Origin: an uncultured Bacillota bacterium
GTDB taxonomy: Bacteria; Bacillota; Clostridia; Christensenellales; UBA1242
DNA length: 46,225 bases
Reading direction: 5' to 3'
NCBI GenBank assembly: GCA_949298925.1
Contig: CASFYE010000002.1
Location: forward strand, 1-46,225
Shown here piece by piece: positions 24,236 to 46,225 of this stretch. The position numbers and the translations under genes are program-made. Each line of letters starts with the position of its first letter. Position 1 is the first letter of the stretch. A model generated the notes under the pieces. That model ran no database searches, was not told where the DNA came from, and saw only the letters and a program-made list of their open reading frames with translations.

Positions 24236-24321
24236 ACAAATTGATAATTATTTTATATGTTTTTTGTATTTATAGCGACTATTATGATATATAACATACT
24301 ACATATTGTGTCTAAATTCTT

Positions 24322-24350
24322 TTGCATATTTTTTTAAAATGTTGTATAAT
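24322..24350 (+). promoter_or_regulatory. sigma-A promoter of the recombinase gene; predicted leaderless
   Basis: TTGCAT (24322-24327), 17 nt, TATAAT (24345-24350), 6 nt, ATG 24357. No SD. Confidence 0.55.
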
Positions 24351-24356
24351 TCTTAT

Positions 24357-25397
24357 ATGAAAAAGCTTAACTATTTTGAAAAACGCGACATTTTAAACCA
24401 GAAGAAAATTGGCGCTATAACATCAAATTTGCCGGACTTCGTTTATGATTTTTTTATAGGAATTGAAAACAATTCATCTTCATTGACACGCAGAAACTAT
24501 GCAATGGATTTAAATATATTTTTTGACTTTTTACAAGAAATTTTACATAAAAGTAAAGATCAAATAACTTTGCAGGACTTAGACAAACTAAAATCTACAC
24601 AAATTGAACAATACTTGTCCTATCTTTCCTTTTACGAAACAGATGGGAAAATCAACAAAAATGGTGAACGCGGAAAAGCAAGAAAACTTGCAACAATTCG
24701 AAGTTTTTTTAAATATCTTTTTGACCACGACATGATCTCATCAAACGTCGCGAGTAAAGTTCCAACACCAAAGCTTCATAGCAAAGAAATAATAAGATTA
24801 GAACAAGATGAAATTGTTAGAATGATGGACGCAGTTTCATCAAACAATACATTTTCAAAAAGACAGAAAGCATACAATCGAAACACTTTCGAACGCGATA
24901 ATGCAATTGTAACATTATTTTTAGGAACAGGTATTAGAATTTCAGAATGTGTTGGCTTAAACTTGGAAGATTTTGATTTTTCACAAAACGCATTTAAGGT
25001 TACTAGAAAAGGTGGCAATCAAACTGTCCTTTATTTTTCGAGTGAAGTAGCAAACGCTCTAAAAATATGGTTAAAAAAGAGAGCCACGTTAGGATTGAAT
25101 GATGATGAAAATGCGATGTTTATTTCATTGCAAAAAAAGAGGATATCTGTTCGCGCTGTCGAAGATCTAGTAAAAAAATTCGCAAAAGAAGCAACTCCCC
25201 TAAAAAAGATTTCTCCGCATAAGTTGAGAAGCACATTCGGCACAAACTTATATAGAGAAACAAATGACATTTACATTGTTGCAGATGTACTTGGTCATAA
25301 AGACGTCAACACGACCAAAAAGCATTACGCCGCAATAAGCGAAGATATGAGAAAATCAGTAGCAGGCAAAGTTAAAATAAACACATCAAAAGATTAG
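24357..25397 (+). CDS. tyrosine site-specific recombinase, long Xer-like (XerS-like architecture)
   Basis: Catalytic signature R (GIRISE), VTRKGG, HKLRSTF, LGHKDVNTTKKHY. ~346 aa from ATG 24357. The ORF track begins at TTG 24306. Confidence 0.85.
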   Translation: MKKLNYFEKRDILNQKKIGAITSNLPDFVYDFFIGIENNSSSLTRRNYAMDLNIFFDFLQEILHKSKDQITLQDLDKLKSTQIEQYLSYLSFYETDGKINKNGERGKARKLATIRSFFKYLFDHDMISSNVASKVPTPKLHSKEIIRLEQDEIVRMMDAVSSNNTFSKRQKAYNRNTFERDNAIVTLFLGTGIRISECVGLNLEDFDFSQNAFKVTRKGGNQTVLYFSSEVANALKIWLKKRATLGLNDDENAMFISLQKKRISVRAVEDLVKKFAKEATPLKKISPHKLRSTFGTNLYRETNDIYIVADVLGHKDVNTTKKHYAAISEDMRKSVAGKVKINTSKD

Positions 25398-30310: not shown

Positions 30311-31425
30311 TTCATTTTCTCCGACAATTCAAGATAAGCTTCCCTTATGAGCTTTCCCGCTTTCTTAATTTCGTTTTCGTTTTGCTGAGCGTTTAAACTC
30401 ACACGCAAAACACCCTTGATTTTATCAAGCGGATATCCCATACTTTCAAGCACATGATTCCCTGCTTTTTTTGATGAGCAAGCACTTCCACGACCAATTA
30501 TAACATCTTTTTCAAGCATTCTAACAAGCGTTTCACCATTCACTCCCTCGCAAGTAAAGGTCAATATGTATGGACTTTTTTCACACGTCCCAACAAAATC
30601 AATCCCTTTTTGGTTAAGTTGTTTTACAAGTATTTCATTCAATTTCTTTACTTTTTCATAATTCGATTGAACATCGATCTCTTCTGCGGATACAAGCATG
30701 GCCATAATACCTGGAACATTTTCAGTGCCAGATCGTTTATCAAATTCTTGCCCGCCCCCAAATACCATGTTTTTTAATGTGTCCTTATTTTTAACATACA
30801 AAGCCCCAACACCTTTCGGACCGTGAAATTTATGGGCACTTATCGAAAACAAATCAATATCTAGTTCATCCAACCTAAATGGGATTTTACAAAAGGCTTG
30901 GACACCGTCAACGTGTATTATTGCCCTGGGAGCTCTTTCTCTTACAATTTTTGACAATTTTGCAATATCATTAATTGCACCCGTTACACTATTGACAAAC
31001 ATACAACTAACAAATCTCGTTTTCGAATCGACGAGCTTTGTTAAAGCGTCTAAATCAACATCTCCCGCCTTTTTCAAAGGAATAAATCTGACGTCTTTTC
31101 CTTCATTTTCGAGCGATTTTGCAACATTCAAAACGCTTGCGTGTTCGCCAGCTGAAAAAATATAATTCCACTGCCCCTCTCTTACACTACCGCGAATTGC
31201 CAGGTTGTTAGATTCGGTCGCCCCACTTGTAAATATGATATCGCCAACTTTGACACCAAACAACTTTTTTAATCTTTCCCTTGCGCCGTTAAGTGCCTGC
31301 CTCACTTCAAAAGCCTGCTGATAAGACGCGGAAGGGTTGTAATAATTAAAACAAGCCCAATTTAACAATTCTTTCCCGGCTTTGTCACTTAACCTTGTGG
31401 TTGCCGCGTTATCAAGATAAATCAT
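30307..31425 (-). CDS. cysteine desulfurase (NifS/IscS class; ThiI partner, NifZ-like)
   Basis: 372-aa ORF with the PLP lysine motif SAHKFHGPKG and the active-site loop GSACSS. It overlaps the thiI start by 4 nt. Confidence 0.9.
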   Translation of the reverse strand: MIYLDNAATTRLSDKAGKELLNWACFNYYNPSASYQQAFEVRQALNGARERLKKLFGVKVGDIIFTSGATESNNLAIRGSVREGQWNYIFSAGEHASVLNVAKSLENEGKDVRFIPLKKAGDVDLDALTKLVDSKTRFVSCMFVNSVTGAINDIAKLSKIVRERAPRAIIHVDGVQAFCKIPFRLDELDIDLFSISAHKFHGPKGVGALYVKNKDTLKNMVFGGGQEFDKRSGTENVPGIMAMLVSAEEIDVQSNYEKVKKLNEILVKQLNQKGIDFVGTCEKSPYILTFTCEGVNGETLVRMLEKDVIIGRGSACSSKKAGNHVLESMGYPLDKIKGVLRVSLNAQQNENEIKKAGKLIREAYLELSEKMK

Positions 31426-33806
31426 CTTAAACTTGCTCCATATCTAAATTTTAATGCTTTTAAGACTTTGGCTATTGTTTCAGTGACCTCTTCATCAGTC
31501 AATGTTTTATCCTCATTAGAAAGTCTTATGTTGTAAGCCATCGATTTTAATCCATCTCCAAGAGTTTTGTTTCTGTAAACATCAAACAATTTGACTTCAT
31601 AAAAGATTTTTCCACAAGCAGATTTAATAGCATTTTCTAAATCCGCATTTGATATTTCTTCTTTTACAACAATTGCCAAATCTCTGTCGACAATAGGAAA
31701 TTTTGGAACCTGTTTGATAACATTTTTTTTCTTTGGTAACTTCAACAACTTGTCCAAATCTATTTCAGCAAACAAACTCGTTTTTGGTATGTTGTAGTTT
31801 TTTGCAACAGTTGGATGAACCTGTCCAAAAGAAGCATAGATTTCGCCATCTTCGCCAACAACATCAGCAGAAATGCCAGGATGCAAAAAAGGCTGGGTAG
31901 ATCTTACAAGTTTGTAAGATAGCCCGGTTTCTAAAATTGCGTTTTCAACACAAGCTTTGAATTCAGCAAAGCTCATATCATATGCCCCCATACTGATTTT
32001 GTTAATCTCAACAGGAAGCTCCGTCAAAGGCAAAGATTTTGGATGAAAAGTTTTTCCAGACTCAAACAATCGCATATCTTTGTTCCCCACACTAAAATTG
32101 TAAGCCAATGAACTGAGCATTGAGTGTGCTAGCGAAGTTCTCATACACGACAACTCTTCCCCAATAGGATTAGCTATTTTAATCATAAATCTTCTGTTGT
32201 CAGTTAGCATAAGTTTCGAAACTGAATCAGGTGGGATAAAAGAATAATTCATTGCTTCAAAAAATCCTGAATATTTTAAAGCATCTTTTATTTTCCTTTC
32301 AAGCATAACTTTGTCGCCATAATCGCCTTGTGTCAGTTTCCAACCTAGATATGGTTCTTTGACCTCTCCACCATCATAAACATCATATCCATATATTCTT
32401 ATTACTTCTTCTGCAATGTCATATTCGTTTTCTAAATCTTCACGAAAGTTAGGAACATTCACCACAATAGTTTCACCTTCGAGTTTGCTTGGCACTTGCA
32501 AAGCATTCAAAATTCTAACCATGTCGTTTGCCAAAATGTTTGTCCCTAAAATAGCATTTATATCTTTAACTTTCGCATGAATATCGCGTGTTTTTGTAGC
32601 GCCTCTATTTTCATCGATAATGCCTTTGCAAATTTCACCCAAATTTAAACTATAAACCAAATTTAGAAACCTTTTCAACCCATCTTCTGCGCTATGAAAA
32701 TAAACGCCTTTTGAATATCTAGCAGATGAATCCGTTCTCACCCCAATTTTTTTGCTCGTTTGGCGAATAGACTTTAAATCAAAAACCGCTGACTCTATTA
32801 CAGCATCACGAGTATCATCTGAAATGCAAGAATTTGTCCCACCTATGACACCTGCAATAACCATCGGCTTTTTTGCATCAGCTATGACTAAGTCCGACGA
32901 ATCAAGAGAATAAGTATTATGATTCAACACTGCAAGTTTTTCCCCAGCCAAGCCATCGCGAACAACGATTTTTTTGCCCTCAATAAATTTTTGGTCAAAG
33001 GCATGCATCGGTTGTCCCATTTCAATCAAAACATAATTCGTCAAATCGACAATCGTGTTGATAGGCTTTATACCCACAGCAAACAGTCTTTGGCGAATTT
33101 TCAAAGGAGATCTTTCAATTTTAACATTTTTTAAAACAGATGCCATGTAACGCGAACATTTGTTTGATTTTAATTCAACAGTCATGTCATTTTTTATTGT
33201 TGATTCTTTAAATGACAAATCTGGTGTTTTAAATTTCGCTCCTGTAACTGCACACACCTCTCGTGCTAGCCCTATAACACTCATGCAATCTGGTCGATTT
33301 GGAGTGATTCCAACATCAAACACAACGTCATCTAACCCTAATGCTTCATCTATGTTTTGGCCAATTTTAAAATCATTAGGCAGAATAAGTATGCCATTCA
33401 CAGATGCACCTTGCATAAAATTGTCATCTATGCCAAGTTCCTCACCAGAACAAAACATACCATCGGAATCCACGCCACGAAGCTTCGACTTAGCTATTTT
33501 AACCCCATTAACTAAATCTGCGCCCTCCAATGACACGGGAACAATTGCATTTTCAAATATATTGGTGGCCGAAGTGATTATTTGCACCACTTTGTCACCA
33601 ATATCCACTTTACACACTTGCAACTTGTCGGCATTTGGGTGTTTTTCAATTTTTAAAATCTTGCCAACCACAACATGATGAAGGTGTTCGTTAAGATAGA
33701 TGATTTCTTCGACTTCCATGCCAGCATTAGTAAGCTTTTTTGCAAGCTCCTCGGCAGGTATGCTTATATCAACAAAGTCTTTCAGCCATTTATACGTTAT
33801 TTTCAT
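31422..33806 (-). CDS. pheT: phenylalanine--tRNA ligase beta subunit
   Basis: 794-aa ORF with an N-terminal tRNA-binding OB domain (KHPNADKL), B3/4 and B5 domains and a C-terminal FDX-ACB-like domain. Confidence 0.95.
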   Translation of the reverse strand: MKITYKWLKDFVDISIPAEELAKKLTNAGMEVEEIIYLNEHLHHVVVGKILKIEKHPNADKLQVCKVDIGDKVVQIITSATNIFENAIVPVSLEGADLVNGVKIAKSKLRGVDSDGMFCSGEELGIDDNFMQGASVNGILILPNDFKIGQNIDEALGLDDVVFDVGITPNRPDCMSVIGLAREVCAVTGAKFKTPDLSFKESTIKNDMTVELKSNKCSRYMASVLKNVKIERSPLKIRQRLFAVGIKPINTIVDLTNYVLIEMGQPMHAFDQKFIEGKKIVVRDGLAGEKLAVLNHNTYSLDSSDLVIADAKKPMVIAGVIGGTNSCISDDTRDAVIESAVFDLKSIRQTSKKIGVRTDSSARYSKGVYFHSAEDGLKRFLNLVYSLNLGEICKGIIDENRGATKTRDIHAKVKDINAILGTNILANDMVRILNALQVPSKLEGETIVVNVPNFREDLENEYDIAEEVIRIYGYDVYDGGEVKEPYLGWKLTQGDYGDKVMLERKIKDALKYSGFFEAMNYSFIPPDSVSKLMLTDNRRFMIKIANPIGEELSCMRTSLAHSMLSSLAYNFSVGNKDMRLFESGKTFHPKSLPLTELPVEINKISMGAYDMSFAEFKACVENAILETGLSYKLVRSTQPFLHPGISADVVGEDGEIYASFGQVHPTVAKNYNIPKTSLFAEIDLDKLLKLPKKKNVIKQVPKFPIVDRDLAIVVKEEISNADLENAIKSACGKIFYEVKLFDVYRNKTLGDGLKSMAYNIRLSNEDKTLTDEEVTETIAKVLKALKFRYGASLR

Positions 33807-33859: not shown

Positions 33860-34879
33860 CTATTTTATTTGTTTTAAAAATCTTATATCGTTTTTAAACA
33901 TATTTCTTAAATCGGTTATGCCATCATAAACCATCGCAAATCTATCAACACCAAAACCAAACGCAAAACCGCGATATTCTTTGCTGTTAATCCCTGACAT
34001 TTCAAGCACTTTTGGATTCACAATGCCAGCTCCAAGCAATTCAAGGAAGCCTGTCCCCTTGCAAACCTTACAACCTTTTCCATTACATGTTGGGCAACTT
34101 ACATCAACTTCAACACTCGGCTCAGTAAACGGGAAAAAGCTTGGTCGAAATCTTATCGTCGTTTCTTCCCCAAATATCTTCTTCATAATATCAGTAAGCA
34201 TCGCTTTCAAATCCGCCATAGAAACATTCTTGTCAACCACAAGTGCTTCAAGCTGATGGAAAACAGGAGAATGAGTTGCATCACTATCGTTTCGGTAAAC
34301 TCTTCCAGGTGAAATTATTTTAAAAGGTGGTTTTAAAGTTTCCATACTCCTAACCTGCACAGATGAAGTTTGCGACCTTAACAATATGTTTTCAGTTATA
34401 AAAAATGTGTCCTGCATATCCCTTGAAGGATGATTTTTGGGAATATTCAATCCTTCGAAATTGTAATAATCAAGTTCTATTTCAGGCCCTTCCACAACTT
34501 TAAATCCCATGGCAACGCAGATGTCCATCATTTTATTAAACATTTTTGTTGTCGGATGAAGCGCTCCTCTTTCATGATTTTTACCAGGTTCGGTTATGTC
34601 AATCGCACCTTTTGCCAATTCTTTTTCAAGTTCCAACTTGTTAAAATACTCTTCTTTTTCGGCATAAGCGTTTTCAATTTTTTCACGCAATTCATTTATC
34701 ATTGCGCCAATTTTTGGTCTATCCTCAGGAGCAACATCTCTCATTCCACGCAAAACACTTGTGAGCTCACCTTGCTTACCTAAAAATTTAACTTTGAATT
34801 CAACGAGTTGTTCTTTGCTAGAAATTGTTTTTAATTCATTTTGAGCCCTGTTTAAAATATCTGTCAATTTTTCTTCCAT
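33860..34879 (-). CDS. pheS: phenylalanine--tRNA ligase alpha subunit
   Basis: 339-aa ORF with class II motifs (HPSRDMQDTF, FRPSFFPFTEPS, GFAFGFGVDR). Confidence 0.95.
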   Translation of the reverse strand: MEEKLTDILNRAQNELKTISSKEQLVEFKVKFLGKQGELTSVLRGMRDVAPEDRPKIGAMINELREKIENAYAEKEEYFNKLELEKELAKGAIDITEPGKNHERGALHPTTKMFNKMMDICVAMGFKVVEGPEIELDYYNFEGLNIPKNHPSRDMQDTFFITENILLRSQTSSVQVRSMETLKPPFKIISPGRVYRNDSDATHSPVFHQLEALVVDKNVSMADLKAMLTDIMKKIFGEETTIRFRPSFFPFTEPSVEVDVSCPTCNGKGCKVCKGTGFLELLGAGIVNPKVLEMSGINSKEYRGFAFGFGVDRFAMVYDGITDLRNMFKNDIRFLKQIK

Positions 34880-34890
34880 TTCATCTCCTT

Positions 34891-35138
34891 AAAAAAATCT
34901 CCCACCCTTTTCTTATTAGGGCGAGAGAAAACTTCCACGCGTTACCACCTAATTTCAGCCTTGCCAGGCCCTCATCTTGCAATATTACGGTTGCAACCGA
35001 TCTGACTTACACACAAAAAGCTTCTGCCAGACAGCTAAAAGGTGAATTCACTTTCACGTGATGATCCATTTCCAGCAAACATGAATCTCTCTGTAATCAC
35101 GTTTTAAAAGCTACTACTCCTTTATCATCGCTTTTTAT
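34891..35138 (-). promoter_or_regulatory. T-box riboswitch, Phe specifier (UUC), controlling pheST
   Basis: On the minus strand there is a GA/K-turn start AGCGATGATAAAGGAGTAGTA, an AGAGA box and a specifier loop GAAAGTGAA-TTC-A (TTC is the complement of 35044-35046). The T-box sequence AAATTAGGTGGTAACGCG is the complement of 34938-34955. A terminator stem followed by T7 lies at 34891-34930. Confidence 0.85.
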
Positions 35139-43326: not shown

Positions 43327-44739
43327 ATGAATAAAAAAATAAAATTAATTATTGATAGTGATGTTTCAAACGAGGTTGACGATGTTTTTGCCCTTGCCTA
43401 TGTGCTTTCACGCAGAGATTTATTCGATGTAAAACTGATCTCAATCTCACCATTTTCAGCTTCTTATTGCAGAAATTCAATTCGTGACAACTCAATTGAT
43501 TCTAAATATGAAGCAACAAGATTAATGCGAACAATCGGGCTAAAGAATACTGACATTGTGAAAAGTGGTAGCATTGATTATCTATCAAACAACTACCGCT
43601 CATCAAGCGAAGCGACAAATGAAATAATTAAAATAGCAAGCAAAGAAAAAATAACAATCCTTTGTTTAGGAACTCTCACAAATGTCGCCATAGCTCTTTT
43701 AATAAAACCGGAAATTGCTAGAAATTTAAAAATTATCTTTTTGGGGACTCAAAATCTTTTGCACAAAAAATTTACCGATTTCAATTATATAAAAGATAAA
43801 AAAGCATTTGAGGTCGTCGCAAAAAACGTTGACGATTTAACTATATTTCCAAGCACGGTAGCTAAACAGTTTGTAACAAGCATTTATGAAGCCAAAAATC
43901 ATCTGTGCCAAAACAAACTTGGAAGATACCTATTTAAAAAGCTAAATAATTCTGTCTTCAAAATACAAAACCGTGGTATACACACAATTTATGACATAGG
44001 TCCCGTCGCTTATTTGATTAACAAAAAATGGTTTTGCACCACAAAAATATCCATTAATGAACTTTTAAAAGAGCAAAAACATATTGAAAATGAAAAAACT
44101 GTCAACTATATTTTTGATTTACAAAAGCAAGCAAATTATGATGTCTGGAAAGATTTTATAAGCTCAATAACTTCTGTGGAAACAACCTCCAAAAGAAACA
44201 TTTTTTTCACATCTGACACTCACTTTTCCTCTGAACGCGTGATAAAATTAAAATTAGTTCCTTTTGAAAATGTTGAGCAAATGAATTACGAACTTGTCAA
44301 AAGATGGAACAGTGACGTTTCAAAGGACGACATTGTTTATCATCTTGGTGACTTTGGAGAATATAGTTATATTAAAAAATTAAAAGGCAAAGTCATATTG
44401 ATATTGGGAAATTATGAAATAGCAGATATGAAAAAGCAAAAGTTAAGTTTTAAGCAGTTTAAAGAAAAACTTATATCTATGGGATTTTATGACGTGATAG
44501 AAAATAATTTAAAAATCAACATAGATGATTGCGAAATCTATTTAACACACAAACCTGTCGACTGCAACAAAGAAATGATAAACTTGTTTGGTCATGTCCA
44601 TTTGTTAAAGCCCGTAAGCAAATCAGGATTTAATGTAGCAACAACATATTTTGACTTTCACCCCGTTTCTTTGCAACAAATGAAAAATAAAATTAATTTC
44701 ATTAAAAATTATGCTGACAAAAACGTGTTTGCTGATTAG
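43327..44739 (+). CDS. fusion protein: N-terminal inosine/uridine-preferring nucleoside hydrolase-like domain plus C-terminal metallophosphoesterase domain
   Basis: N-terminus has IIDSDVSNEVDDVFALAY (the DxDxxxDD motif of the IUNH family). The C-terminal ~180 aa have the calcineurin-like motifs SDTHF, LGDFG, GNYE and GHVH. Confidence 0.75.
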   Translation: MNKKIKLIIDSDVSNEVDDVFALAYVLSRRDLFDVKLISISPFSASYCRNSIRDNSIDSKYEATRLMRTIGLKNTDIVKSGSIDYLSNNYRSSSEATNEIIKIASKEKITILCLGTLTNVAIALLIKPEIARNLKIIFLGTQNLLHKKFTDFNYIKDKKAFEVVAKNVDDLTIFPSTVAKQFVTSIYEAKNHLCQNKLGRYLFKKLNNSVFKIQNRGIHTIYDIGPVAYLINKKWFCTTKISINELLKEQKHIENEKTVNYIFDLQKQANYDVWKDFISSITSVETTSKRNIFFTSDTHFSSERVIKLKLVPFENVEQMNYELVKRWNSDVSKDDIVYHLGDFGEYSYIKKLKGKVILILGNYEIADMKKQKLSFKQFKEKLISMGFYDVIENNLKINIDDCEIYLTHKPVDCNKEMINLFGHVHLLKPVSKSGFNVATTYFDFHPVSLQQMKNKINFIKNYADKNVFAD

Positions 44740-44748
44740 CAAACATAT

Positions 44749-44824
44749 CGGCGTGTAGCGCAGTTGGTAGCGCGCATGGTTCGGGACCATGAGGCCGTGG
44801 GTTCAAATCCCGCCACGCCGACCA
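44749..44824 (+). tRNA. tRNA-Pro (CGG)
   Basis: Cloverleaf folded by hand: acceptor CGGCGTG/CACGCCG, anticodon loop TTCGGGA, T-loop TTCAAAT, CCA encoded. It starts 9 nt after the preceding CDS stop. Confidence 0.9.
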
Positions 44825-44968
44825 AAAGACTTAATAACAGACTTTCACAAATAATTAATATTAACTATATTATAAGATATAGCCATTTTGTTAAAATATA
44901 AATTTGACTATAAAATAGATTACACAAACATAAATTTATAAAATATTACAAAAATTGTTTTAATTTTC

Positions 44969-44997
44969 TTGACATAGCTTTTCAATTAGTGTAAAAT
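44969..44997 (+). promoter_or_regulatory. sigma-A promoter for tRNA-Pro(UGG)
   Basis: TTGACA (44969-44974), 17 nt, TAAAAT (44992-44997). Confidence 0.6.
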
Positions 44998-45018
44998 GAT
45001 TTCGCAACCTAAAAGCGT

Positions 45019-45094
45019 CGGGGTGTAGCGCAGTTGGTAGCGCACGTGGTTTGGGACCATGGGGTCGGGAGTTCGAGCCTCTCCACCCCGACCA
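45019..45094 (+). tRNA. tRNA-Pro (UGG)
   Basis: Acceptor CGGGGTG/CACCCCG, anticodon loop TTTGGGA, CCA encoded. Confidence 0.9.
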
Positions 45095-45311
45095 TCTTCA
45101 TTTATGAAGAGAGTTGCTTTCTTGTTGTTTTTGACTGTTTTTTATATGAAAACATCAAAATGACGAGCTCTTAGGTTAAAACAAAAATGTTTGCTTGCAA
45201 TTACATTTTTGTGCAAACCGCATCACAACATTTGTTAGAATTGTTGTGATATAACCGAGTCGCGTCCCCGGACCGACCGGCAGAAATAAAACAAAAATCC
45301 AAGTTTTTCTT

Positions 45312-45388
45312 GGGCCTTTAGCTCAGTTGGTTAGAGCAACCGGCTCATAACCGGTCGGTCCGGGGTTCAAGTCCCTGAAGGCCCACCA
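45312..45388 (+). tRNA. tRNA with CAU anticodon, probably tRNA-Ile2 (lysidine type) rather than elongator Met
   Basis: Acceptor GGGCCTT/AAGGCCC, anticodon loop CTCATAA. The body (TAGCTCAGTTGGTTAGAGC...GGCTCATAACC) resembles Bacillus tRNA-Ile(CAU) as I recall it. Identity is not certain. Confidence 0.8.
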
Positions 45389-45430
45389 GAGCAAGACTGC
45401 TCATCAACAAAAGTGGCTGAACGCAAGCAT

Positions 45431-45515
45431 GGGAAGGTTGCAGAGCGGCCAAATGCAACGGACTGTAAATCCGTCGACTACGTCTTCGATGGTTCGAATC
45501 CATCCCTTCCCACCA
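45431..45515 (+). tRNA. tRNA-Tyr (GUA)
   Basis: Acceptor GGGAAGG/CCTTCCC, anticodon loop CTGTAAA, long variable arm, CCA encoded. Confidence 0.9.
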
Positions 45516-45547
45516 TCGCGCAAGCGAACGACAAATCAACCTCTTAT

Positions 45548-45624
45548 GGCTCGGTAGTTCAGTTGGTTAGAACGCTAGCCTGTCACGCTAGAGGTCGTGG
45601 GTTCAAGTCCCATCCGAGTCGCCA
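45548..45624 (+). tRNA. tRNA-Asp (GUC)
   Basis: Acceptor GGCTCGG/CCGAGTC, anticodon loop CTGTCAC, discriminator G, CCA encoded. Confidence 0.9.
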
Positions 45625-45744
45625 AGTTGGTTTGTCGTATTTCCCCTTTTTATTTGATTATAAAAAAGGGAAAAACAGCAAATAAAAAGCACTGCATATT
45701 GACTGTTAATTTTGCAATTTATTAGATGCGACAAGCCTCTAACA

Positions 45745-45932
45745 CCCCTGATAGCTCAGTCGGTAGAGCAAAGGACTGAGTCAAAGGGGTCTCAAAATGC
45801 TTTGCATTTTGGGAAGCGGAGAAAACGTGCGTTAACCGAGCCTTTGCGATTAGCAAAGCGAGCACAAGCACGATTTTCGAAGCCGTGTCGGTGGTTCGAT
45901 TCCACACCACCACAAAATAAGGTGGAATCGAA
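45745..45932 (+). pseudogene. tRNA-Phe-derived element: 5' half and T-arm of tRNA-Phe separated by a 105-nt structured insert; no acceptor 3' strand
   Basis: 45746-45779 is identical to 45951-45984 of the intact tRNA-Phe, and 45885-45905 is identical to 45993-46013. The 8 nt AAATCCTT of the intact gene are replaced by 45780-45884. The 3' acceptor strand is replaced by ACCACCAC. Confidence 0.8.
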
Positions 45933-45949
45933 AAAGATTTTAAAGATAT

Positions 45950-46025
45950 GCCCTGATAGCTCAGTCGGTAGAGCAAAGGACTGAAAATCCTTGTGTCGGT
46001 GGTTCGATTCCACCTTAGGGCACCA
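45950..46025 (+). tRNA. tRNA-Phe (GAA)
   Basis: Acceptor GCCCTGA/TTAGGGC, anticodon loop CTGAAAA, T-arm GGTGG-TTCGATT-CCACC, CCA encoded. Confidence 0.9.
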
Positions 46026-46081
46026 AAGCGAATAAGCGTCAACAAATTCCCCTTCTCTTTTGGCACTTAATTCGCAAAAAT

Positions 46082-46156
46082 GCTGGCGTGGCTCAACGGT
46101 AGAGCAGCTGACTTGTAATCAGCAGGTTGTAGGTTCGATTCCTATCGCCAGCTCCA
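46082..46156 (+). tRNA. tRNA-Thr (UGU)
   Basis: Acceptor GCTGGCG/CGCCAGC, anticodon loop CTTGTAA, discriminator T, CCA encoded. Confidence 0.9.
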
Positions 46157-46163
46157 TAAAAAT

Positions 46164-46184
46164 GACCTTTCGAGGTCTTTTTTT
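46164..46184 (+). terminator. rho-independent terminator after the tRNA cluster
   Basis: GACCT-ttcg-AGGTC followed by T7. Confidence 0.7.
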
Positions 46185-46225
46185 GTTTAAGACTGATTAC
46201 AAGTCAGCGCTGACTATAATATTAA

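Follow-up and report, generated by a model that had tools for sequence, protein, structure and literature searches.

The DNA analysed here (the window, 46,225 nucleotides of contig CASFYE010000002.1, assembly GCA_949298925.1) comes from an uncultured Bacillota bacterium of the Clostridia. Near its 3′ end, between the genes for tRNA-Asp and tRNA-Phe, it carries an element (45745-45935) in which pieces of the tRNA-Phe gene frame a non-tRNA insert. Drawing on predicted folds and on comparison with relatives, we propose, at about even confidence, that this element may be a selected, cis-acting structured 5′ leader or spacer RNA of tRNA-Phe within a Pro-Met-Tyr-Asp-Phe-Thr operon. A preliminary description, made from the letters only, had suggested a tRNA-mimic RNA, a function against which the results below speak.

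Structure and conservation of the spacer element

Exact-match searches bore out the composition given in the preliminary description. Two direct copies are identical to the intact gene over 34 and 21 nt, tRNA-Phe nt 36-43 (AAATCCTT) are exchanged for a 105-nt insert (45780-45884), and the acceptor 3′ strand is gone, with ACCACCAC standing after the pseudo-T-arm instead. The searches also revealed a third piece, absent from that description: an exact inverted copy of 15 nt that lies 17 nt 5′ of tRNA-Phe. All three pieces lie in the spacer next to the intact gene and in the same transcription unit, and the insert shows no similarity to anything else in the 46-kb window.

The helices that had been proposed by eye all recur in the minimum free energy (MFE) fold of the element: the CCCCT/AGGGG helix, the 11-bp hairpin at 45790-45814, the 10-bp helix 45821-30/45868-78 around 45842-58, and the helix 45895-905/45922-32. 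This fold has an energy of -70.5 kcal/mol, with z = -4.6 relative to shuffled sequences. Its helices, labelled H1 to H5 in Table 1, stay paired among relatives, some of them through compensatory changes, as is general for conserved structured RNAs. H1 co-varies, reading CTCT/AGAG in the relative L001 and CCCC/GGGG in the window (C-G to U-A). In a hand-made structural alignment of the window type with the type found in L014, 4 of the 11 pairs of H2 differ, each on both sides and with pairing kept; in a model-fitted alignment, 100% of H2 cells are paired and 3 pairs are doubly changed. Among the copies beside tRNA-Phe, H3, H4 and H5 are invariant apart from one-sided changes in H4 and H5 that give U-G, the sole stem change in H5 being U-A to U-G in the L018a copy. 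Such one-sided changes yield G-U pairs that are valid only for RNA of the + strand, which is the orientation of the operon. Across the seven matches of the model-fitted alignment, which is biased towards the structure of the model, 95.7% of cells pair, compared with 33-51% when the partners are slid, and five pairs carry double changes. Overall, about 10 stem nucleotides have changed, and none of these changes disrupts pairing. The check on covariation that the preliminary description had called for found compensatory changes in H1 and H2, in few lineages and with an alignment fitted to the model. A long-range helix offered by RNAalifold (acceptor 5′ strand with the variable loop and T-stem 5′ side, columns 7-14/151-159) was discarded, as L001 breaks it without compensation.

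The element occupies the identical site in four metagenome-assembled genomes (MAGs), namely the window and the relatives L001, L014 and L018, which amount to about three independent lineages. The L001 element is 96% identical to the window copy, and those of L014 and L018 are about 84% identical to it. L018 holds two head-to-tail units of about 207 nt each, and the other three genomes hold one. Among close relatives the element is thus conserved rather than freely degenerating, but it is absent from L007, a relative with a hydrolase 69% identical to the window's, whose compact array has a 42-nt Asp-Phe spacer with no tRNA fragments. Compared piece by piece, the window and L001 elements are 94-100% identical; the corresponding values are 47% for 4-fold degenerate sites of the hydrolase gene, 33% for the 89 nt 5′ of the element and 50% for the 14 nt 3′ of it. 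For the non-tRNA insert, identity is 94% between the window and L001; against the L014 type the figure is about 84%, taken over 81 nt, and there the adjoining spacer cannot be aligned. Moreover, the sharp edges of the conserved block match the terminal hairpins P1 and H5. Comparison of the window with the L014 type is the more telling one because the terminator stem and the Met-Tyr and Phe-Thr spacers have all been replaced there and the element has been retained. The conservation of element and insert in four MAGs, with flanks at 33-50% and helices that keep pairing through double changes, agrees with the earlier argument against simple decay.

The distribution of the element is narrow, being restricted to a few uncultured gut Clostridia. 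Three insert and tail patterns, scanned against 185,579 species-representative genomes, recovered only this locus in these MAGs and chance matches, such exact-pattern scans being liable to miss diverged copies. In JGI metagenomes, a 19-mer of the insert had 0 matches, and a 20-mer of the tail had one chance match in a coding region. No copy of the element was found among viral contigs, phage records or plasmid records. An exact 28-mer over the 5′ junction had 0 matches in genome contigs, as L001 differs at that junction. The chance matches (L004 and L019-L023) were read or scored and discarded, and L031 and L032 proved to be unrelated arrays. Searches by way of spurious open reading frames (ORFs) over the element gave protein matches confined to the stretch antisense to tRNA-Phe. 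In other samples the contigs break off at the array, and contigs anchored on the methyltransferase gene that lies downstream in relatives stop 150-330 nt past that gene, before the element.

Table 1. Parts of the element and the signals around it (window positions; all on the + strand)
Feature	Position	Strand	Basis or remark
Likely operon promoter, TTGACA-17-TAAAAT	44969..44997	+	Precedes tRNA-Pro(tgg); promoter scan, 11/12 positions
P1, 5′ hairpin: tRNA-Phe nt 1-35 and first 10 nt of insert	45745..45789	+	MFE folds, all copies
H1, outer helix of P1	45745-51/45781-89	+	MFE folds, all copies
34-nt tRNA-Phe copy (nt 2-35)	45746..45779	+	Exact-match search
Inner helix of P1	45754-61/45774-81	+	MFE folds, all copies
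H2, 11-bp hairpin, module domain 1	45790..45814	+	MFE fold; co-variation
H3 (45821-30/45868-78) around hairpin H4 (45842-58), module domain 2	45821..45878	+	MFE fold
21-nt tRNA-Phe copy (nt 44-64), variable loop and T-arm minus last base	45885..45905	+	Exact-match search
H5, 11-bp hairpin, pseudo-T-arm with inverted fragment, 16-nt loop (ACCACCACAAAATAAG)	45895..45932	+	Predicted in every copy
Inverted copy of tRNA-Phe nt 54-68, exact 15 nt (anti-tRNA segment)	45918..45932	+	Exact-match search
Non-conserved 14-nt leader ending at expected RNase P site	45936..45949	+	50% identity to L001
Intact tRNA-Phe(GAA), source of copied segments	45950..46025	+	ARAGORN; Rfam 72.3 bits
Intrinsic terminator closing the operon, 3′ of tRNA-Thr	46164..46185	+	Terminator scan, terminator-like site at 46164-46177

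Operon context and possible action on tRNA-Phe

Seven tRNA genes, Pro(cgg), Pro(tgg), Met, Tyr, Asp, Phe and Thr, lie on the + strand at 44749-46156 (ARAGORN, Rfam), and the Asp-Phe spacer that houses the element spans 325 nt (45625-45949). The promoter block is kept in L001 and L007, and the remaining Pro-Pro spacer is not conserved. From this block to the terminator past tRNA-Thr, the scan reported no other + strand terminator-like site. The element accordingly has a strong promoter-like site ahead of it and the sole + strand terminator-like site behind it, and lacks a conserved promoter of its own. The weak promoter-like TTGACT that the preliminary description had placed at 45699 is present as a motif, but the promoter scan does not report it, and it lies in unconserved spacer (33% identity to L001). 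As this putative promoter is not conserved, an independent transcript of the element is unlikely. H5 was considered as a terminator and rejected, since an A-run follows it on the + strand and a T-run precedes it on the - strand, so that it would terminate neither strand.

We picture the element as being transcribed only within the operon precursor, from which cleavage by RNase P at 45950, together with 3′ processing of tRNA-Asp, would release a spacer RNA of about 190 nt. The terminal hairpins P1 and H5 may shield this RNA from exonucleases. Within the precursor, the inverted 15-mer would have two possible partners: its computed duplex has an energy of -23.5 kcal/mol with the real tRNA-Phe and -17.0 kcal/mol with the pseudo-T-arm, which would serve as a decoy. 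For the element folded together with tRNA-Phe, the global MFE structure has the 15-mer invading the tRNA (-104.7 kcal/mol), compared with -98.5 kcal/mol for H5 plus the cloverleaf. A free anti-tRNA 15-mer would pair with the T-arm and the acceptor 3′ strand, trapping pre-tRNA-Phe in a form other than the cloverleaf. H5 could form first, co-transcriptionally, and sequester the 15-mer, allowing tRNA-Phe to fold and RNase P to cut. Because the free antisense would trap the precursor, the leader may insulate, or possibly gate, the folding and maturation of tRNA-Phe.

The central part of the insert belongs to more than this one spacer. Its core of about 100 nt consists of H2 followed by H3 enclosing H4, a two-domain module. 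In the lineage of the window, this module is capped at either end by a hairpin, P1 or H5, that reuses parts of a partial tRNA-Phe duplicate. A covariance model built from the window and L001 inserts only, with rough calibration of E-values, recovers the inserts of L014 and L018 (E~1e-13). Full-length matches to it were also obtained in the Pro(cgg)-Pro(tgg) spacers of L014 (5666-5769; 27 bits, E 5e-4) and L006 (5782-5885; 18 bits, E 0.05). In this Pro-Pro paralogue, H2, H3a and H4 are kept with compensatory changes, including CG to GC and AU to CG exchanges in either direction within the H3/H4 domain. A more distant array, L029, was located through a spurious ORF; it has the order Pro-Met-Asp-Tyr-Phe-Thr and adjoins spoIIA genes. 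Its Phe-Thr and Asp-Tyr spacers (1388-1497 and 1723-1793, - strand) hold the same H2-type hairpin, CCCGAAAATG...CATTTTTGGG. The Phe-Thr copy continues with an outer helix around an inner hairpin, the Asp-Tyr copy is shorter and has no inner hairpin, and both end about 7 nt before the next tRNA. A regular-expression search of all sequences collected found the H2-type hairpin confined to tRNA spacers. Since the core recurs in other tRNA spacers, the insert appears to be a lineage-typical pre-tRNA leader or spacer module and no random filler, and the L029 copies, as judged from sequence, suggest a wider family of structured pre-tRNA leaders. The Pro-Pro paralogue itself lies 3′ of the terminator of tRNA-Pro(cgg), with 112-nt direct repeats on either side, followed by a repeat-rich ORF of 169 aa on the opposite strand.

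An arrangement of similar architecture precedes tRNA-Met. There, the order is a 5′ part of tRNA-Met, about 115 nt of structured insert, 15-16 nt exactly antisense to tRNA-Met nt 40-54, and a leader (window 45166-45311; L001 7820-8173; L003 8912-9283; L014 7161-7347). The window keeps only the 3′ part of this module, with its exact 15-nt antisense at 45266-45280; in L001 and L003 the module is tandemly duplicated, with a pseudo-5′-half of tRNA-Met in front. For the tRNA-Met precursor, the antisense-invaded MFE is -78.0 kcal/mol, against -70.0 kcal/mol, and an A-to-G change in the L014-type antisense still permits a G-U pair with the tRNA. Homology between the Met-leader insert and the Phe insert was considered and set aside: their alignment is no better than that of shuffled sequences and neither nhmmer nor the covariance model links them, so that the architecture alone is common. 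It is an improbable extension of our proposal that the H2-H3/H4 core acts as a sensor or protein-binding domain choosing the partner of the 15-mer, decoy or tRNA, as a riboswitch-like gate on the maturation of tRNA-Phe, with the tRNA-Met leader working alike.

Rearranged tRNA pieces are found elsewhere in these arrays. Two 175-nt units follow tRNA-Met in L014 (7404-7753), and both of them close with the final 18-21 nt of the tRNA. In L014 and L018 (571-735, - strand), tRNA-Phe is followed by one or two 76-nt units composed of an inverted fragment and a 3′-end copy, and in L024 (3986-4244, - strand) the 3′ part of tRNA-Thr is duplicated together with the terminator. In the window, a 16-nt exact inverted copy of the anticodon arm of tRNA-Thr lies at 46193-46208, just past the operon terminator. 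It adjoins the palindrome AGTCAGCGCTGACT and would expose a loop, TTACAAG, complementary to the anticodon loop of tRNA-Thr(UGU); the copy is kept in L001, L014 and L024, even where the sequence of the terminator stem has been replaced. The arrangement of fragments in these arrays is always forward-inverted-forward, which suggests duplication and inversion by template switching at short palindromes, supplied by the tRNA stem-loops. The element may thus have arisen by local duplication and inversion at the tRNA-Phe gene followed by unequal crossing-over, and the latter would explain the two tandem copies of L018.

Further features of the region were recorded alongside. The leader and trailer of tRNA-Asp (45528-45540 and 45626-45638) are complementary over 13 nt, ACGACAAATCAAC and GTTGGTTTGTCGT, with one G-U; their pairing would lengthen the acceptor stem into a long processing stem, and it is also found in L001, L014 and L007. 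Upstream of the array lie genes for a nucleoside hydrolase (470 aa), DegV, an SDR protein and spoIIA products, and a protein search with the hydrolase places the source among uncultured gut Clostridia, the one named relative being annotated 'Candidatus Caccovivens sp.'. The window stops 200 nt past the array, and the downstream neighbourhood is seen in relatives, with a methyltransferase and a cytidylate-kinase fusion in L001, L007 and L024. A prophage context was rejected, the upstream + strand genes being chromosomal (spoIIIAE, xseA, proS, tgt, rny). About 10 kb from the tRNA-Phe locus, a T-box leader (34914-35137, - strand; 117.5 bits) lies upstream of ORFs of 339 aa and 794 aa (33860-34879 and 31422-33806), whose sizes and order fit pheS-pheT as a candidate assignment; no link between this leader and the spacer element was found.

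Alternative explanations

Several points weigh against a selected leader RNA. Between the window and L001, the other spacers of the operon are likewise 91-98% identical, and the tree of the array (window with L001; L014 with L018/L003) conflicts with that of the hydrolase (L001 with L014/L003; window as outgroup). Given this discordance, which concerns window positions 43327-46225 compared with L001, L014 and L003, the identity of window and L001 may partly reflect recombination or chimeric assembly at identical tRNA genes. Four genomes from about three independent lineages make the covariation statistically weak, and the Pro-Pro and L029 paralogues are weak matches (E 5e-4 to 0.05). Co-transcription, excision and stability of the element are things we infer, and the case for H5 as an insulator or gate is built on nearest-neighbour energies and on a co-transcriptional order of folding that we assume. 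Furthermore, hairpins that are palindromes in DNA can stay paired through template-switch correction without any selection on RNA.

The last point leads to a neutral explanation, which we consider a serious possibility even if rather unlikely. The element would then be a functionless rearrangement scar, a partial tandem or inverted duplication of tRNA-Phe fused to spacer, which survives since it does no harm there, with gene conversion by the tRNA and palindrome correction mimicking conservation. These arrays abound in forward-inverted-forward patterns and in changes of tandem copy number (L014, L018, L001, L003 and L024), and the array and gene trees disagree, as stated. The fragments also follow their own tRNA at position 68, which is T in L029 and A in L014, in the tRNA and in its direct and inverted copies. 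L007, in addition, manages without any fragments. However, the non-tRNA insert cannot be homogenised against a tRNA, and yet it is conserved in L001 and, more distantly, in the L014 type beside spacer that no longer aligns. A neutral scar is also at odds with stem changes that break not a single pair, with conservation whose sharp edges match the terminal hairpins, and with diverged copies of the core that hold the same fold in other spacers.

An origin as a mobile module is improbable in our view. Under this explanation, the core of about 100 nt, or the whole unit of about 205 nt, would be a miniature element that integrates into tRNA genes or close to them, with the copied tRNA segments as att-like junctions and the tandem copies as repeated integrations. 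One breakpoint lies within the anticodon loop (35/36) and the other where the T-stem ends (64/65); both places are reportedly classic crossover sublocations of tRNA-targeting integrases. The units are bounded by direct repeats, which measure 33 nt in L014 and 112 nt for the Pro-Pro copy; several tRNA spacers hold diverged copies, and the conserved block has sharp edges. Nevertheless, the scans of species representatives gave this locus and chance matches only, a result that likewise speaks against a dispersed repeat such as a miniature inverted-repeat transposable element (MITE) or a BOX-like family, and the window of 46 kb holds a single copy. The preliminary description had envisaged that the insert might match a known mobile-element scar; no such match emerged from genome, metagenome, viral, phage or plasmid searches. 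The element has no terminal inverted repeats and no adjoining integrase. The sole integrase-family gene (24306-25397) lies at a distance of 20 kb and has chromosomal genes as neighbours (SpoIVB, RecN), a setting that makes it probably a Xer-type recombinase. Integrases normally leave the 3′ part of a tRNA duplicated, whereas here it is the 5′ part that has been copied.

The tRNA-elbow mimic of the preliminary description, in which the D- and T-loop halves dock as in tRNA and the RNA works in trans, decoying or tethering a tRNA-binding protein in the manner of YrlA, is in our judgement very unlikely. In agreement with the statement there that the element is no functional tRNA, ARAGORN called no tRNA at it with or without introns, and the Rfam tRNA model RF00005 gave no match there even at E<=10. 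At 70-80% stringency, ARAGORN returned only a spurious 'tRNA-Arg' at 45844-45913. An intron-containing tRNA was dismissed, as ARAGORN -i is silent and parts of the 3′ exon are missing. A 7-bp acceptor stem is impossible with the 3′ strand replaced, and in the anticodon arm, where 105 nt stand in place of nt 36-43, the 5′ strand AAGGA has no partner. The mimic draws some support from G18G19 and the TTCGATT T-loop, which are intact in 4/5 copies, and from the D and T stems, which can coexist with H1, H2 and H3/H4. However, the perfect retention of both loop halves holds for the window and fails for its homologues. In the L001 pseudo-T-arm, G53 is changed to C, destroying the universal G53-C61 pair; in L014 and L018, the D-stem change G22 to A breaks the 13-22 pair, and a base has been inserted into the D-loop. 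All these mutated positions are unpaired in the predicted P1/H5 fold, in which nt 10-17 pair with nt 30-37 within H1, and the T-loop and the 3′ strand of its stem pair with the inverted fragment. When the D and T stems are imposed on the fold, each of four copies ends up 11-13 kcal/mol worse than its MFE.

YrlA RNAs are characterised by a Ro60/Rsr (TROVE) gene within about 4 kb on the same strand, a Ro-binding motif, and D- and T-like stem-loops flanking an acceptor-like stem (PMC4201824), with conservation of tRNA-invariant nucleotides among orthologues. The YrlA model (RF02553) reaches 18.7 bits, its gathering score being 69, and its match (45859-46008) runs on from the pseudo-T-arm into the real tRNA-Phe. 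No TROVE or Ro60 gene was detected among the 10 ORFs of the window that were scanned, nor in annotations of the genes adjoining related loci, and thus none within 4 kb, the downstream side being judged from relatives. The motif GNCGAAN0-1G is absent from the sequence of the element. The topology differs as well: nothing beyond the D region is closed by H1, the D and T parts are set about 100 nt apart by other helices, and no acceptor-like stem lies between the two arms.

To a small-protein gene we give practically no weight, and this candidate was rejected. A GGAG followed by a GTG (45827) opens a short ORF within the insert; in L014 (8143-8238) and L018, GGAG-N7-GTG is followed by a 31-codon frame running through the pseudo-T-arm, and the Pro-Pro paralogue holds a 23-codon frame in the same register. 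In the window and L001 copies, however, the frame ends after 2 codons, an in-frame stop that refutes the gene for the window. The window and L014 types moreover differ by 1-nt indels, and 4/4 differences between L014 and L018a within the frame are non-synonymous. These three observations indicate that the element is non-coding, and the 31-codon frame of the L014 type is probably fortuitous.

Relation to known systems

If the proposal of a cis-acting leader RNA is correct, tRNA-operon spacers of small-genome uncultured gut Clostridia would carry a recurrent folded module together with exact antisense, rather than junk, and the idea that pre-tRNA leaders control or protect the folding of their own tRNA would become testable. 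The locus would also be a clear-cut case from nature in which tRNA stem-loops seed local duplication and inversion whose products are later co-opted into RNA structure. In practical terms, metagenome assemblies are interrupted at the array by such repeats, and annotating look-alikes as tRNA pseudogenes or tRNA-like non-coding RNAs should be avoided.

Hairpin-rich intergenic repeat families such as BOX and RUP of Streptococcus occur in tens to hundreds of dispersed copies per genome. The element resembles them in being modular, hairpin-rich, apparently co-transcribed, intergenic and about 100-200 nt long, but it exists in one or two diverged copies, all in tRNA spacers. Its possible origin recalls the model of tandem inversion duplications (TID) that is attributed to the Roth laboratory. 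Similarly, origin-dependent inverted-repeat amplification (ODIRA) generates inverted triplications via template switching at short palindromes (PMC4689423). As in these models, a forward copy, an inverted fragment and a forward copy are found, followed by remodelling through deletion, with tRNA stem-loops as the palindromes. The parallel bears on origin only, the junctions here being beyond reconstruction and the scale, tens of nucleotides, far smaller. YrlA and other bacterial Y RNAs (Chen et al. 2014, PMC4201824; RF02553) share with the element sequences that look like D- and T-arms, but the element has no Ro gene, Ro-binding stem or motif, or acceptor-like stem, and its tRNA-like positions vary in homologues.

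Two further systems are closer. The E. coli RNAs 3′ETS-leuZ and the internal transcribed spacer (ITS) of metZWV are reportedly sponges of small RNAs that derive from tRNA-operon spacers. The element, too, lies in a predicted tRNA-operon spacer, as judged from the tRNA, promoter and terminator scans; processing of the polycistronic precursor would free it, and its structure could stabilise it. In contrast to those sponges, it is clearly complementary to nothing but its own downstream tRNA, and this points to a role in cis. The tyrT gene of E. coli is said to be followed by distal 178-bp repeats, every one of which has the last 19 nt of tRNA-Tyr at its end. Here as there, tRNA segments are repeated beside an intact gene in the same transcription unit, with tandem variation in copy number and a likely origin in unequal or illegitimate recombination. 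Exact same-orientation copies lie next to the intact tRNA-Phe gene within a promoter-like and terminator-like bracket, the number of units varies (two in L018), and the 175-nt units after tRNA-Met in L014 are a near-exact analogue of the tyrT repeats. The element differs from tyrT in that the 5′ 35 nt and the T-arm, not the 3′ end, have been copied, and in that an inverted fragment is included; its copies, moreover, flank a conserved, covarying fold that also exists without tRNA fragments. The element belongs with two known kinds, tRNA genes partly duplicated within their operons and RNAs derived from spacers, and it contains an RNA fold, narrow in distribution, that has not previously been described.

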